The position numbers and the translations under genes were made by a program. 64,000 nt of DNA from Ostreococcus lucimarinus (Eukaryota), in the NCBI GenBank assembly GCA_000092065.1, contig CP000587.1, one strand, 5' to 3'. Below are positions 7,033-56,950 of this stretch, piece by piece. Position 1 is the first letter of the stretch, and the number at the start of each line of letters is the position of its first letter. The notes below the pieces were generated by a model that saw nothing but the letters and a program-made list of their open reading frames with translations, did no database searches and was not told the origin of the DNA.

Positions 7033-7869
7033 ATGCGACGCCCCACGTGCGCGGTCGACATCGACGCCGATGGCGTCGGCGTGCTTACGCTGTCGCGCCC
7101 GCACCGCGCGAACGCGCTGAACGAAGAAATGTGGACCGACTTTGCCGAGTGTGTGAAGTTTGTGGGACAGTCGAACGCGCGATGCGTCGTCGTGCGCGGC
7201 GATGGTCGGCACTTCTGCGCCGGCATCGACGTCGCGGATGAGGCGACGTTGAAATCGACCCTCGGCGACGTCGGCGACGTCGGCGCGGCAACGTGCGAGG
7301 GACGCCGGCGGGAGAGTTTGTTGAGGAATATTAAGAGGTTGCAAGACGCGTTCACGGCGCTCGAGCGGGACGTGGAGTGTCCGACGATCGCGTGCGTGCG
7401 AGGGGCGTGCTACGGAGCGGGGGTAGATATGATCACGGCGTGTGATTTGAGGGTGTGCTGCGGGAAATCGGCGCGGTTTTGCGTCAAGGAGGTGGATTTG
7501 GGCATCACCGCCGACGTCGGCACGCTTCAGCGCTTGCCGTCGATTATTGGCTTCGGTAGGGCGGTGGAACTGGCGATGACCGCCAGGGAGATGGACGCGA
7601 AAGAGGCGCTCGCGATTGGATTGGTGAGCGAGATTTGTGACGACGTTGAAGCACGCGCGATGGCTCTCGCGAAAATGTTGGCGAAGAAGTCGCCTCTCGC
7701 GCTTAGAGGCACGAAACGAACACTCCTGCGGCAGCGCGACGACCCAAACGTCGCGCGCGGGCTCGACTACGTCGCAACGCACAACGCTGCCATGCTGATG
7801 AGCAACGATTTAAACGAAAGTTTGCGCGCTAGATTCGAGAAACGCGAACCGATATTCGCTAAGCTCTAG
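7033..7869 (+). CDS. Enoyl-CoA hydratase/isomerase (crotonase) family, delta3,5-delta2,4-dienoyl-CoA isomerase-like, with C-terminal PTS1 (AKL)
   Basis: Crotonase fold motifs are present: VLTLSRPHRANALNEEMW, FCAGIDV, ACVRGACYGAGVDMITACDLRV. The protein ends ...EPIFAKL*. AKL is a canonical peroxisomal targeting signal 1, as in plant DCI1. Confidence 0.75.
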   Translation: MRRPTCAVDIDADGVGVLTLSRPHRANALNEEMWTDFAECVKFVGQSNARCVVVRGDGRHFCAGIDVADEATLKSTLGDVGDVGAATCEGRRRESLLRNIKRLQDAFTALERDVECPTIACVRGACYGAGVDMITACDLRVCCGKSARFCVKEVDLGITADVGTLQRLPSIIGFGRAVELAMTAREMDAKEALAIGLVSEICDDVEARAMALAKMLAKKSPLALRGTKRTLLRQRDDPNVARGLDYVATHNAAMLMSNDLNESLRARFEKREPIFAKL

Positions 7870-7913: not shown

Positions 7914-8537
7914 CTAATCGAGACGCTCGCCTCGTCCTTCAACCGCCCCTCGCACGGGCGTCAGCAATCCATTCGCGCTCAAACTAATTGTCGCTGGGTC
8001 CCGCACCAAGTCGAACGCCAACAACTCTAAATCGTCGTCCACATAGCATTTGCCGTCTGCCCGTGTCTCGAGCGAAGACCAACTCCTCGTCGACGCGCCG
8101 ACCAGTCCCCCTCCCTCGTAAATCTCCCGTATCGCCCGCCCGCTCTCCGTATCCAAGATCTTGACGTATCCCATCAGCGTCCTATCTCCATCGCACCAAT
8201 ACACATCCACGACTCGACAGCACGCGCGCGTCTCGTCGTCGGCGTCCCGGAACTCGGCCTCGTCCGTAGCCGCCGGGTGTTCCAACTTCCCGTACGCTCG
8301 ACCGCGCCGCACGCGCGCCGCGACGTACGCCGCGACTTCCCTGTGCAGTATGGGTTTCGGATACACCCGTCCGTTGCGATTCACGCGATCGCACCGTGCG
8401 AGAACGCCGTGTAAATACAGCTCGCCTTTGTTGTTCGCCAACGACCGCGCGAGCGCGTCGACGCGCGATCGGCGCTCGATCTCGGCCTCGTCCGCGAGCG
8501 CGCGCTCGACGGTGTGCACGGACACGCACACGCCCAT
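7914..8537 (-). CDS. Hypothetical protein resembling phage T4-type prohead core serine protease (Peptidase S77 / gp21-like)
   Basis: The track ORF 7914..8624 begins with TTG rendered as M. The first ATG is at 8537, giving 207 aa (T4 gp21 is ~212 aa). The blocks LYLHGVLARCDRVNRNGRVYPKPILHREV, GKLEHPA and GASTRSWSSL recall gp21 NRNKRLYPKRILEKAV, GELNHPP and GVSSRGLGSL (His/Ser/Asp triad positions) from memory. No intron. GC content is as in the flanks. Confidence 0.4.
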   Translation of the reverse strand: MGVCVSVHTVERALADEAEIERRSRVDALARSLANNKGELYLHGVLARCDRVNRNGRVYPKPILHREVAAYVAARVRRGRAYGKLEHPAATDEAEFRDADDETRACCRVVDVYWCDGDRTLMGYVKILDTESGRAIREIYEGGGLVGASTRSWSSLETRADGKCYVDDDLELLAFDLVRDPATISLSANGLLTPVRGAVEGRGERLD

Positions 8538-8714: not shown

Positions 8715-11117
8715 ATGTCCTCGCTCGAGGCGATTCGCTACGCGCGCGGAAACCTCGAGCTGCTCGATCAGCTCGCGCTGCCGCTGGAGACGAAATACAT
8801 CGACGTGCGCGACTGCAACGCGTGCTGGCGATGTATCAAAGATATGAACGTGCGAGGAGCGCCGGCGATCGCGATCGCAGCGGCGCTGGCGCTGGCGGTG
8901 GAGCTAGAGGCGAAGCGAGGGACGCTGACGACGTGCGAGGCGGCGGAGGCGTTCGTGCGCGAGCGGTTTGATCACATGTACACGTCGAGACCGACGGCGG
9001 TGAACTTGGGGGAGGCGAAAAATAGGATACAAGCACTCGCAAAGCGATTGAGTGAAAGCGGAGACGTGTCAGGGATGATTGAAGGGGTGATTGAAGGATG
9101 CGAGGCGATGCACGCCGAGGACGTGGCGTCGTGCAGAGCCATCGGAGACAAGGGTGCTGCGGCGCTGTTGCGCGCGTGCGGCGCTAAAGATGGAGAAAAT
9201 ATCAAAGTGATGACGTGCTGTAACACTGGATCGCTCGCGACGGCGGGCTACGGTACTGCGTTGGGGGTGATTCGTGCTCTTTGGGAGTCGGGGCGACTCG
9301 AGCGGGCGTATTGCTTGGAGACGCGGCCGTACAATCAAGGGTCGAGGTTGACCGCGTACGAGCTGGTGTACGAAAAAATTCCAGGGACGTTGATTTGTGA
9401 TAATATGGCGGCGGCGCTCATGGCACGAGGAGACGTGGACGCGATCGTCGTGGGTGCGGATAGAGTCGCCGCAAACGGCGACTTTGCTAACAAAATCGGC
9501 ACCTATTCGCTCGCGGTGAACGCGAAGCATCACGGAGTGCCCATGTTCACCGCAGCACCGGTGACGACGTTAGATCCCGAGACGGCGACTGGGGCAGATA
9601 TTCACATCGAAGAACGACCGGGCGAAGAAGTGACGCACTCGCTCGGTAAGCGTGTGGCGGCGGAAGGAATAGACGTGTGGAACCCATCCTTCGACGTGAC
9701 CCCTGCGGCGCTCCTCACGGGTGTCATCACGGAGCACGGTGTGATTGAAAAGAACGCCAGTGGATTGTTTCCCGTTGCAGACTTCGTAGCTCAAGCAAAG
9801 GGAGGTACATTGACGGTCGCAAAGCCGAGCGGTCCACCGGGATTCATCGCACTTAATTGCGAAACCGTACTCGATTACGCAGCGTCAAAGGAAAACGTTG
9901 CCAAAGTTTTGGGAGGCGCCTCGACGCGCGCGTCGTGGTCGGCGAAAGAAATCGGTGACGGTAACATCAACTTTGTCTACATCGTCACCGGTGCGTCTGC
10001 AAATAAATCCGTCATCGTGAAGCAAGGTTTGCCATTCGTACGCTGTGTTGGCGAAAGTTGGCCCCTCACGCAGGAGCGCGTTCGATATGAAGCCGAGGCG
10101 CTCATTCAAGCGCACAAATTTTGCCCCGAGCACGTCCCGGAAGTGTACGTGTACGACGCTACGATGGCAACTATCGTCATGCGATACCTAGAACCACCGC
10201 ACATCATCCTCCGAGGCGGTATTATTGAAGGTAAAGTGTACCCAAAGTTGGCCGAACACGTCGGCGAATACTTGGCGACGACACTCTACAAGTCGTCCGC
10301 GTTGGCCGTCGGCGGTGCCGAACTTCGACGCGCACGTCAAGCTTTCGGGCAAAACGAGGATATGTGCGAGCTCACTGAACAAGTCATCTTCACCGAACCG
10401 TACGGTAAGGCTGATAACAATCATTGGACGACGCCACAGCTCGACGACATCGTCGGCGAGATTCAATCCGACGCCGCACTCAAGCGCGCCATCAACGCGC
10501 TGAAGGAAAAATTTATGACTGAAGCGCAAGCGCTGCTGCACGGCGACTTGCACACCGGCTCTTTGATGTGCACGGAGACGACAACATTCGCGATCGACAA
10601 CGAGTTCGCGTTTTATGGGCCGATGGGATTCGACATTGGCGCATTTTTAGCAAACCTACTGTTAGCCTACTTCTCTCAAAACGGTTGGGCGAAGTGCAAC
10701 GGAGAAGATCGCGGCGCACAACGCGACTGGCTCTTGAGCGCTTTTGCGTCTACGTGGGGTATATTCGAAAAACGTTTCTTAGAACAGTGGAACGAACAAG
10801 GAGTGCGCGACGACTGTGGTGGTTTGTCGCCCGCAATTTTGTACGGTAAAGATGTGAAGAGCGGCGCGAGCGCTCTCGAGGAACATCAACGCACGTTCAT
10901 GCGAAAGATATGGGCCGATACTCTCGGTTTCGCGGGTGCTAAAATGATTCGTCGCATCATCGGCATCGCGCACGTCGCTGATTTGGATAAGATACCAGAC
11001 GCCAACGTACGCGCCCAGTGCGAACGCGCGGCGTTAAAGTGCGGTCGCGAGCTCATGCTCAACGCGACGACGCTCACGCCCGAGTCGATCGTCGACGTCG
11101 TGAAAAGCTGCGAGTAG
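8715..11117 (+). CDS. Bifunctional methionine-salvage enzyme: methylthioribose-1-phosphate isomerase (MtnA, eIF2B-like) fused to methylthioribose kinase (MtnK)
   Basis: The N-terminal half (LEAIRYARGNLELLDQLALPLETKYIDVRDCNACWRCIKDMNVRGAPAIAIAAALA ... VGADRVAANGDFANKIGTYSLAVNAKHHGVPMFTAAP) is the MTR-1-P isomerase fold. The C-terminal half (EIGDGNINFVYIV, LHGDLHTGSLM, FAIDNEFAFYGPMGFDIGAF) is MTR kinase. The track start at 8658 is GTG. The first ATG at 8715 (MSSLEAIRY) matches MtnA N-termini. Confidence 0.85.
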   Translation: MSSLEAIRYARGNLELLDQLALPLETKYIDVRDCNACWRCIKDMNVRGAPAIAIAAALALAVELEAKRGTLTTCEAAEAFVRERFDHMYTSRPTAVNLGEAKNRIQALAKRLSESGDVSGMIEGVIEGCEAMHAEDVASCRAIGDKGAAALLRACGAKDGENIKVMTCCNTGSLATAGYGTALGVIRALWESGRLERAYCLETRPYNQGSRLTAYELVYEKIPGTLICDNMAAALMARGDVDAIVVGADRVAANGDFANKIGTYSLAVNAKHHGVPMFTAAPVTTLDPETATGADIHIEERPGEEVTHSLGKRVAAEGIDVWNPSFDVTPAALLTGVITEHGVIEKNASGLFPVADFVAQAKGGTLTVAKPSGPPGFIALNCETVLDYAASKENVAKVLGGASTRASWSAKEIGDGNINFVYIVTGASANKSVIVKQGLPFVRCVGESWPLTQERVRYEAEALIQAHKFCPEHVPEVYVYDATMATIVMRYLEPPHIILRGGIIEGKVYPKLAEHVGEYLATTLYKSSALAVGGAELRRARQAFGQNEDMCELTEQVIFTEPYGKADNNHWTTPQLDDIVGEIQSDAALKRAINALKEKFMTEAQALLHGDLHTGSLMCTETTTFAIDNEFAFYGPMGFDIGAFLANLLLAYFSQNGWAKCNGEDRGAQRDWLLSAFASTWGIFEKRFLEQWNEQGVRDDCGGLSPAILYGKDVKSGASALEEHQRTFMRKIWADTLGFAGAKMIRRIIGIAHVADLDKIPDANVRAQCERAALKCGRELMLNATTLTPESIVDVVKSCE

Positions 11118-55429: not shown

Positions 55430-56950
55430 ATGAGCGAGAACGACATGGCGGTCGCGAACGCGCCGGTGGACGCGTCGTGCGCGAAGAGTGCGATCGAGGG
55501 CGCGAGCGGCGACGCGCGAGCGGCGGCGGCGGTGCCGGCGTGGATGGCGGATGACGACGACGACGGGTTGACGGAGGAACAGCGAAGGGTGATCGCGGAG
55601 CGGGTGGCGGCGTTGCAGAATCGATTTAAGAAGTTTGAGGAGAAAACGACGCGGGAGAAGGTGGAGGAATTGATGCTCGGGAACGCGGATAAGGGGTTGA
55701 CGGAACGAGAGGCGGACATGGTGCTGAGAGTGTGTAACGGGAACGAGTTCGAGGCGAGCGACCGCCTCGGCGAGGCGGAGGATGGGGAATCGTTTTTGAT
55801 GTCTATTCGGTTCATGATTCAGGAAGAGGACGCGCTGAAACGACGTTCGCAGAGCTCAAAAGCGGCACAGACGGCGAACGAGCGGTTTAACAAGCGCATC
55901 GAGCGCTTGCGTAAGCGTCGGATGTCGTTCGGCGGCGACGAAGAGGACGAGGAAGACGCGGGCGAGCCGGAGGAGTTCTTCGAGACGGAGTACATTTTAG
56001 AAGAGAGTCTCGGCGTACAATTCGTGCGTCACACGAAGAAGCACGTGAATGTGAAACGTTTGCGTCTAGACGACGCCATCGCGCGCGCGCAAGTGGCGGA
56101 AGAGCTCGCGGAGCCGGAGGTCAACCCGTACGAAGGATGGTCCGAGGCGCGTATCAAGGCGTGGAAGAATCGCGAAAAGAATGAAAATCAATACTATTAT
56201 CGATTCAACGAACCGGGAGAGATGCAAGCGAACGGGAAATGGACGGACGAAGAACACCAAAAGTTCATGGATATCATCGCCTCTCTTCCTGGCGGCAAGG
56301 CGAACTACGAATGGGGCACGTTTTCCAAAGGTATCCCAGGCCGCGTCGGTTACCAGTGCTCGAATTATTACCGAACCTTGGTCAAAAACAATATCATCCA
56401 AGACGAAAACTATATGGTGGACCCGGTGTCGGGTGACCTGCGATTCAACTTCAAGAACAAGGGCTTCACGCGCGCCGAACCCGTCGAGGGTGAACCGCGC
56501 ATGGTCATGGTTAAGAAGGTCATCAAGCAGAAGAAACCGAAGGCCCCGAAGCAGCCGAAGAAGGCGAAGAAGAAGGTGAAGAAATCGGACGACAAGGCGT
56601 TCCACTGCACCATCAGAGCGGGTCCCGTGCGTTCGAGCGGTCGAGCGACTAAGAAGACGTACACCGACGGCGGCGACGACGACGAGGATTTCGACGATGA
56701 ATTCGAGGAACTTCCAGTACTCCCGGGATTCATCGATCCCATCACTCGCATGGCCATCGAAGAACCGGCGATTTCGCCGTACGGCCACGTCGCAGGTTAC
56801 GAGACGTGGTGCAAGATTCTTCGCCAACCCGAGGCACCGGACACGTGTCCGTTCACGAAGCAACCGTTAAAACGTCGCGAGCTGATCAAGCTCACGCACG
56901 AAAACATCGACCAATACCGCTCGAAGATCGTCGAAAACCAACAGACGTAG
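55430..56950 (+). CDS. Myb/SANT-domain + U-box-like domain protein with N-terminal UBA/CUE-like motif
   Basis: The SANT/Myb segment is WTDEEHQKFMDIIASLPGGKANYEWGTFSKGIPGRVGYQCSNYYRTLV. The U-box-like segment is LPGFIDPITRMAIEEPAISPYGHVAGYETWCKILRQ...TCPFTKQPL. The UBA-like segment is LTEREADMVLRVCNGNEFEASDRL. A K-rich NLS-like tract is present. Confidence 0.5.
   Translation: MSENDMAVANAPVDASCAKSAIEGASGDARAAAAVPAWMADDDDDGLTEEQRRVIAERVAALQNRFKKFEEKTTREKVEELMLGNADKGLTEREADMVLRVCNGNEFEASDRLGEAEDGESFLMSIRFMIQEEDALKRRSQSSKAAQTANERFNKRIERLRKRRMSFGGDEEDEEDAGEPEEFFETEYILEESLGVQFVRHTKKHVNVKRLRLDDAIARAQVAEELAEPEVNPYEGWSEARIKAWKNREKNENQYYYRFNEPGEMQANGKWTDEEHQKFMDIIASLPGGKANYEWGTFSKGIPGRVGYQCSNYYRTLVKNNIIQDENYMVDPVSGDLRFNFKNKGFTRAEPVEGEPRMVMVKKVIKQKKPKAPKQPKKAKKKVKKSDDKAFHCTIRAGPVRSSGRATKKTYTDGGDDDEDFDDEFEELPVLPGFIDPITRMAIEEPAISPYGHVAGYETWCKILRQPEAPDTCPFTKQPLKRRELIKLTHENIDQYRSKIVENQQT

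Follow-up and report, generated by a model that had tools for sequence, protein, structure and literature searches.

A conserved Ostreococcus host gene of the T4 prohead protease family with a putative N-terminal lipid anchor

We analysed a stretch of 64,000 nucleotides from Ostreococcus lucimarinus (assembly GCA_000092065.1, contig CP000587.1), referred to below as the window. Its minus strand contains an uninterrupted open reading frame (ORF) of 207 amino acids (aa) that starts with the ATG at 8535-8537 and ends with the TAG at 7914-7916. Its product is labelled only as 'hypothetical protein'. An initial annotation had recognized the prohead core protease of phage T4, gp21, in this ORF. Our results confirm that it is a genuine relative of the T4 head-maturation protease (MEROPS family S77), and we consider its status as a conserved host gene descended from S77 nearly certain. 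The gene has the following features:

7914..8537, minus strand: S77 protease coding sequence (CDS), 207 codons plus TAG, intron-less and complete
8520..8537, minus strand: MGVCVS, codons 1-6, an N-myristoylation consensus (Gly2, Ser6) with a candidate palmitoylation site (Cys4); putative anchor
8433..8519, minus strand: predicted long N-terminal alpha-helix, residues 7-35, poorly alignable with phage N-termini
7989..8432, minus strand: protease core with the predicted gp21/assemblin fold, residues 36-183
8277..8279, minus strand: His87, codon CAC, aligned with catalytic His85 of T4 gp21 (GKLEHP / GELNHP)
8091..8093, minus strand: Ser149, codon TCG, aligned with catalytic Ser140 of T4 gp21 (GASTR / GVSSR)
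8010..8012, minus strand: Asp176, codon GAC, aligned with Asp168 of T4 gp21 (FDLVRDP / VDAVWGP)

A bacterial-style gene call gives a 236-aa version of the protein that begins at an upstream TTG. We rejected this start because conservation among the relatives begins at the Met of MGVCVS, while the stretches upstream of it are unrelated.

The protein matches the Pfam family PF03420 (Peptidase_S77) over residues 36-172 with 66.2 bits (gathering cut-off 27, E 3.5e-18), the result of a search that the initial annotation had proposed as a check. It also matches PHROG 207, the head maturation proteases, at 9e-29. T4 gp21 (5jbl) is the sole sequence match in the PDB (E 3e-8), and no better match to an unrelated eukaryotic family was found in the Pfam scan. 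A tblastn search of the window with a genuine phage gp21 finds a single matching spot, the S77 gene (E 2e-17). Three pairs of motifs given in the initial annotation proved exact against the gp21 reference sequence taken from NC_000866: VNRNGRVYPKPIL in the window corresponds to VNRNKRLYPKRIL in T4, GKLEHPA to GELNHPP, and GASTRSWSSL to GVSSRGLGSL. The two proteins are also close in length, as claimed, with 207 aa in the window and 212 aa in gp21.

An AlphaFold model calculated from an alignment of 54 sequences has a mean pLDDT of 88.8. In a Foldseek search with the model, the 5jbl chains alone are significant (TM 0.74-0.76), and the herpesvirus assemblins come next. The predicted structure has the three-dimensional fold of gp21. 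The catalytic triad of gp21 consists of His, Ser and Asp (PMC5694885), and all three residues are present at the aligned positions of the window protein. The columns of His87, Ser149 and Asp176 are invariant across the 54 algal and phage sequences, and the same pattern is found in 130 of the 157 sequences of the hidden Markov model (HMM) alignment, the window protein and T4 included. The residues changed to Ala in 5jbl align with His87 and Ser149. Asp176 is presumed to be the third residue of the triad; the position of its T4 counterpart, Asp168, was counted directly on the NC_000866-derived sequence.

The protein could also be a pseudo-protease without catalytic activity, in which the gp21 fold serves for binding or scaffolding. 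Such a change is seen in paralogs (P0210, P0384 and P0241) in which an N-terminal C3HC4 RING finger is fused to the S77 domain. The catalytic Ser is replaced by Ala in the RING-fused proteins, and in P0384 the His is also replaced by Asn. Two RING-S77 copies are arranged in tandem on one contig (L022 1175-3799, GC 0.59), and the protease fold may be reused in these proteins as the binding module of an E3 ligase. The fast evolution of the Ostreococcus copies relative to the other algal members would also suit a loss of catalysis. However, the triad and the motifs EHP, GxSxR and DxV..P do not vary among the Ostreococcus lineages, although the sequences have diverged by about 40% overall, as would be expected of an active enzyme. 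We regard a pseudo-protease as unlikely.

The protease gene is flanked by cellular genes:

7033..7869, plus strand: enoyl-CoA hydratase/isomerase (ECH) gene, Pfam ECH_1 140 bits; convergent neighbour
8715..11117, plus strand: fused methylthioribose-1-phosphate isomerase (IF-2B) and APH-type kinase, Pfam IF-2B 255 bits, APH 42 bits
8538..8714: divergent intergenic region of 177 bp between the S77 gene and the isomerase-kinase gene; presumed promoter region

The stops of the S77 and ECH genes are separated by 44 bp, and a gene for a ClpB-type chaperone lies beyond the immediate flanking genes. The initial annotation had described the neighbours as a peroxisomal isomerase gene and a Met-salvage gene; the Pfam matches agree with this, and the ECH protein has AKL at its C-terminus, a tripeptide that resembles the peroxisomal signal PTS1. 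Its description of an intron-free ORF with neighbour-like composition also holds, since the ORF is uninterrupted and the GC content at third codon positions (GC3) is 0.755 in the S77 gene and 0.771 in the adjacent ECH gene.

Seven Ostreococcus lineages share the gene order S77-ECH-ClpB, which is also found on a Micromonas-like chromosome with a GC content of 65% (contigs L001-L006, L010, L011 and L014). Every lineage for which a contig was examined has the same ECH and ClpB neighbours. The positional ortholog of O. tauri, 58% identical, is located on the chromosome contig CAID01000007.2, with ECH and ClpB as neighbours here too, so that the proposed check for orthologs in other Mamiellales found the gene at the same chromosomal position. 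A word-indexed protein search yielded ten clusters with 55-64% identity to the window protein, and the identical protein is present in hundreds of marine assemblies on contigs of up to 766 kb. L014, a contig of 1.56 Mb that is judged to be Micromonas-like by its composition (GC 0.646), carries a 40%-identical homolog in this arrangement. The homolog contains a 133-bp GT..AG intron within the protease domain, and its exon 1 encodes MGGCCSVQ...LIVYG. At L014 7874-8134, bacterial-style gene calls miss this exon, and several metagenomic 'proteins' (P0203, P0204, P0372-P0383) begin within the intron or read through it.

Two further observations concern the surroundings of the gene. The isomerase-kinase fusion is a single gene of 800 aa; its APH part is presumably the methylthioribose (MTR) kinase, so that two consecutive steps of methionine salvage would be held in one protein. 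It adjoins the protease gene in most Ostreococcus lineages (L002-L006 and L010), but not in O. tauri. Elsewhere in the window, the GC content falls to 0.50-0.54 between positions 56001 and 60000, compared to about 0.61 over the whole window.

The S77 gene is under purifying selection. Pairwise non-synonymous divergence (dN) is 0.26-0.53 and its ratio to synonymous divergence (dN/dS) is 0.17-0.53, with dS near saturation; the values of the adjacent ECH gene are comparable (dN 0.26-0.51, dN/dS 0.16-0.43). Compared to the window CDS, six environmental contigs show three nucleotide differences, all of them synonymous, and the 177-bp intergenic region is identical in all six. These values bear on the possibility that the gene is an antiviral or virus-sensing factor made from a relative of a capsid protease. 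Its viral ancestry, together with the lineage-specific rate acceleration in Ostreococcus, would suit an arms race, and one report describes a bacterial precedent for the integration of phage proteases into immunity (PMC12991175). Against this, dN/dS stays below 1 and does not differ from that of the housekeeping neighbour, and the gene is part of a conserved syntenic block. The known viruses of Ostreococcus, the prasinoviruses, are nucleocytoplasmic large DNA viruses, which are not known to use HK97-type capsids or S77 proteases. An antiviral function appears very unlikely to us.

The best non-algal relatives of the window protein are all phage genes, which raises the question of whether the sequence is a phage contaminant, a recent insertion of viral DNA or a pseudogene in decay. 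We used 18 proteins encoded by a genuine T4-like phage locus for a tblastn search of the 64 kb, and only the protease matched to any note; a weak match (E 3e-4) to a phage SMC_N/AAA_23 ATPase is located at about 60.3 kb. A viral island was rejected, in agreement with the earlier description of a lone gene. The hallmarks of an endogenous viral element, namely patchy presence, viral neighbours, odd composition and decay, were not observed. The one irregular copy is found at L006 8109-8731, where a pilon-polished long-read assembly has a frameshift in the ORF. We read the frameshift as probably an assembly error and not a pseudogene, because the intact form of the same lineage (P0002) is abundant, with 97 member sequences from short reads. 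The ORF and the triad are intact everywhere else, the gene occupies the same position between eukaryotic genes in at least 8 genomes, its GC3 is host-like, the Micromonas-like copy has an intron and no phage genes are found nearby. On the basis of synteny, GC3 and dN/dS we rejected contamination, viral insertion and pseudogene status; the synteny effectively refutes them, and we consider them extremely improbable. Unlike the genes of family S77 that are located in a head-morphogenesis module, the window gene has cellular flanks. It belongs to S77 by descent and fold, not by biological role.

The word-indexed search had returned relatives from Ostreococcus and a single phage only, suggesting a gene restricted to the genus. 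This was overturned by an exhaustive profile search of 1.8 billion representative proteins. It revealed about 30 representatives of 190-610 aa with eukaryote-like low-complexity tails, which stand between the Ostreococcus clade and the ordinary phage proteins of 200-220 aa. Named homologs are found in Pterosperma and Pyramimonas parkeae (MMETSP transcripts), Pycnococcus provasolii, Chloropicon primus, Myrmecia bisecta, Chlamydomonas schloesseri and Chlamydomonas sp. UWO241, several of them on nuclear contigs of Mb scale. Together with Ostreococcus, they represent six classes of Chlorophyta. The S77 gene is not an oddity of the Mamiellales, but one member of a family that extends across the Chlorophyta. 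In neighbour-joining (NJ) trees, the algal sequences (48 in the first set and 63 in the second) fall into one clade that is free of phage sequences.

The core chlorophyte members have C-terminal extensions of 100-400 aa, which are absent in Ostreococcus. Two conserved stretches are found in the extensions: the block LLLYSHYIVHQ.A.YLDRE.HARDY..HLA.FA.RAHL and a second, short one close to the end. No Pfam family matches either of them, and both are missing in Ostreococcus. They were seen in P0189, P0191, P0198-P0201, P0205, P0209, P0215, P0219, P0368 and P0370, at columns of about 600-650 and 920-950 of alignment A4.

The N-terminus of the algal proteins is distinct from that of the phage proteins. 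Gly2, a small residue at position 6 and a nearby Cys form the classical signature of N-myristoylation combined with S-palmitoylation. The MGVCVS start of the window protein fits PROSITE PS00008. Across 11 sequences of the Ostreococcus clade, M1, G2, C4 and S6 are invariant, conservation begins exactly at the Met, and the consensus is MG[VL]C[VA]S[VT]HTVE. Other algal proteins start with MGCGAS, MGACCS, MGCFSCS, MGGCCS or MGCYLS, and Cys-rich starts such as MFACCCG and MVSCFACFG are also found. Among the complete N-termini, a Cys is present within the first ten residues in 31 of 37 algal sequences, compared to 2 of 142 phage sequences (Fisher p 2e-26). Most of the six algal exceptions are calls that miss exon 1 or are truncated at the N-terminus, and one is a RING-type fragment. 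The myristoylation pattern is fitted by 16 algal sequences and by 1 phage sequence. We infer a lipid anchor that would hold the protein at the cytosolic face of a membrane. The motif is followed by the predicted helix of residues 7-35 (AlphaFold pLDDT about 89-95), in which T9-V10-E11, L14, E17, R22 and R25 are invariant.

Could the conserved N-terminus have a different function? In T4, gp21 cleaves after Glu. Its nine N-terminal residues block the active site until they are removed by self-cleavage, and the protein assembles as a pentameric 'starfish' (PMC9958956). The algal protein may be a soluble protease of phage origin, encoded by the host, in which the MGxCxS motif is not lipidated and forms, for example, an autoinhibitory propeptide like that of gp21; T9-V10-E11, invariant in Ostreococcus, would be consistent with this. 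However, a search of the N-terminus for an autocleavage motif of the gp21 type (L/I-x-E) gave no convincing conserved match, while distantly related algae have Gly2 and clustered Cys residues in common. Starts such as MFACCCG and MVSCFACFG are typical palmitoylation sites, which the phage proteins lack. A soluble protease of this kind seems rather unlikely.

Ordinary gp21 homologs are encoded between the portal and the scaffold/capsid genes (L007). The phage proteins most similar to the algal ones are P0106, P0388 and their relatives. Genes of the P0106 type are part of a module of terminase, T4-type portal, S77 and gp23 on contigs with a GC content of 32% (L015). The slowly evolving algal members are 51-55% identical to P0106 and 51-56% to P0388, compared to about 31-33% for T4 gp21. 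The nearest cultured phages are Microcystis phage Mel-JY01 (58%) and Flavobacterium phage vB_FspM_immuto (52%). Because the protease is a core gene of the head module in this subgroup, the parsimonious direction of transfer is from the phage to the alga, and the aquatic T4-like subgroup is the likely donor group.

Some features of the phage genes were noted in passing. In the head-gene region, contig L015 also encodes a homolog of ribosomal protein S21 (9943-10179) and PhoH. Many gp21 homologs of marine phages (P0427, P0221, P0222, P0224, P0228, P0238 and P0247) reach 370-620 aa through a large insertion that separates the His block from the Ser block. In P0427, a Pfam Intein_splicing domain (PF14890) is inserted directly after GELDHPD|C at the catalytic His motif. 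The insertions in these head-maturation protease genes are inteins. None of these phage proteins is encoded in the window.

Taken together, these results lead us to propose that an early green alga acquired the gene of a head-maturation protease from a T4-like phage, and that it has been a nuclear gene ever since. The 207-aa protein would lose Met1, be N-myristoylated on Gly2 and be palmitoylated on Cys4, and the acyl groups would tether it to the cytosolic face of a membrane. The helix of residues 7-35 would connect this anchor to the gp21-fold core (residues 36-183), which, with His87, Ser149 and Asp176, would act as a serine endopeptidase on cellular and not capsid substrates. By analogy with gp21, the enzyme is probably made in a latent form, is oligomeric and cuts after acidic residues. 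Elaborations that may have followed are the C-terminal domains of the core chlorophytes, the dead RING-fused paralogs in Mamiellales-like genomes and the fast-evolving, minimal form of Ostreococcus. We favour a domesticated, lipid-anchored serine protease that acts on cellular substrates, although with moderate confidence. The historical scenario, a single transfer from an aquatic T4-like phage to the ancestor of the Chlorophyta and the retention of a dual-acylated, tethered protease for hundreds of millions of years, appears to us evenly balanced.

Several observations weigh against this proposal. The bootstrap support of the algal clade is weak (53% for the set of 48 sequences and 40% for the set of 63), and in the NJ tree Ostreococcus is placed on a long branch apart from its syntenic Micromonas-like ortholog. 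The Ostreococcus copies are 36-41% identical to those of other algae and 38% to the nearest phages, so that percent identity alone, at 38% to both, cannot assign Ostreococcus to either group. Transcripts were found for relatives only and none for the Ostreococcus gene itself. The absence of the long tails of the other algal proteins may indicate a shift in function. The acylation is predicted solely from sequence motifs, and, judging by the RING-fused paralogs, the gp21 fold can persist without catalysis.

The position of Ostreococcus can be addressed by other means. An HMM built from the other algae scores the Ostreococcus proteins at 144-167 bits, compared to 130-148 bits for an all-phage HMM and 109-128 bits for an HMM of the closest phage subgroup. 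The algal HMM is preferred over the phage HMMs by 10-26 bits in all 8 Ostreococcus sequences tested. In addition, Y140 and W153 are found in algae only and are common to Ostreococcus and the other algae. Synteny, HMM scores and these two residues are three independent observations that tie Ostreococcus to the algal clade.

That green algae have S77 proteins is already recorded in databases and in a review. The O. tauri ortholog (XP_003080316.2) is annotated as 'Peptidase U9, T4 prohead protease' or 'T4-like prohead core scaffold and protease', and the proteins of Chloropicon primus (QDZ23205.1) and Pycnococcus provasolii (XRA97838.1) are named as prohead proteases. According to a review from 2021, S77 is present in Chlamydomonas and absent from Arabidopsis, and its role is unknown (PMC8643629). 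Apart from this one sentence, our literature search found no study that analyses the algal S77 genes. The initial annotation had suggested either an ancient viral acquisition or an unrecognised eukaryotic use of the fold. Both the acquisition and a use other than in capsids are in line with our results; 'unrecognised' does not hold, as the O. tauri ortholog had already been annotated. None of the outcomes that the initial annotation had listed as refuting its interpretation was observed. What appears to be newly described is the acylation-type N-terminus across the clade, the synteny in Mamiellales together with the intron, the phage subgroup closest to the algal clade and the dead RING-fused paralogs. 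What our analysis adds is an evolutionary and mechanistic framework; the detection of S77 in green algae as such is not new.

The textbook examples of phage-derived eukaryotic genes are the mitochondrial enzymes of replication and transcription. To our knowledge, functioning structural-module genes of tailed phages have hardly ever been encountered in eukaryotic cells. Here, a capsid-maturation protease persists without its capsid, with the triad kept and a eukaryotic membrane anchor seemingly gained, across green algae that include globally abundant marine picoplankton and the model Chlamydomonas. If our reading is correct, it would be a rare case in which a eukaryote has domesticated a virion-module gene of tailed phages, and the protease family would have a role specific to green algae. 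Knock-out mutants of O. tauri and Chlamydomonas are available or can be made, and they offer a testable entry point.

Major differences from the T4 system can be observed. The window protein is 26-28% identical to gp21 and lacks its acidic C-terminal tail. Where gp21 has a propeptide, the algal protein has an acylation-type N-terminus. It is encoded by a nuclear gene of an alga, without the portal-protease-scaffold-capsid module or nearby capsid genes. The P0106/P0388 subgroup is closer to the family as a whole, with 51-56% identity to the Micromonas-like, Pyramimonadales, Pycnococcus and Chlamydomonas proteins, and shares with the algae the motifs NGGRLIV, ALGELDHP and DDFELI.FDFVS.PST.GA. 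It lacks the N-terminal Cys/Gly motif as well as the algal Y140 and W153, and its identity with the window protein itself is only 38%. The catalogued algal S77 homologs are members of the same family and clade as the window protein.

The comparison extends to more distant systems. No sequence similarity to the herpesvirus assemblins (MEROPS S21) was detected in the Pfam and PDB searches. The triad of assemblin is Ser-His-His, while the window protein has Asp at the third position, which sets it apart from S21. The RING-fused paralogs have lost catalytic residues, whereas the window gene retains all three residues of the triad. At the N-terminus, the closest parallel is found in dual-acylated signalling proteins such as the plant BIK1/PBS1-type kinases, the CBLs and the Src-family kinases. 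They start in the same way, with Met-Gly, a small residue at position 6 and Cys at positions 3-5, while their catalytic domains are unrelated to that of the algal protein, in which the acylation is a prediction.

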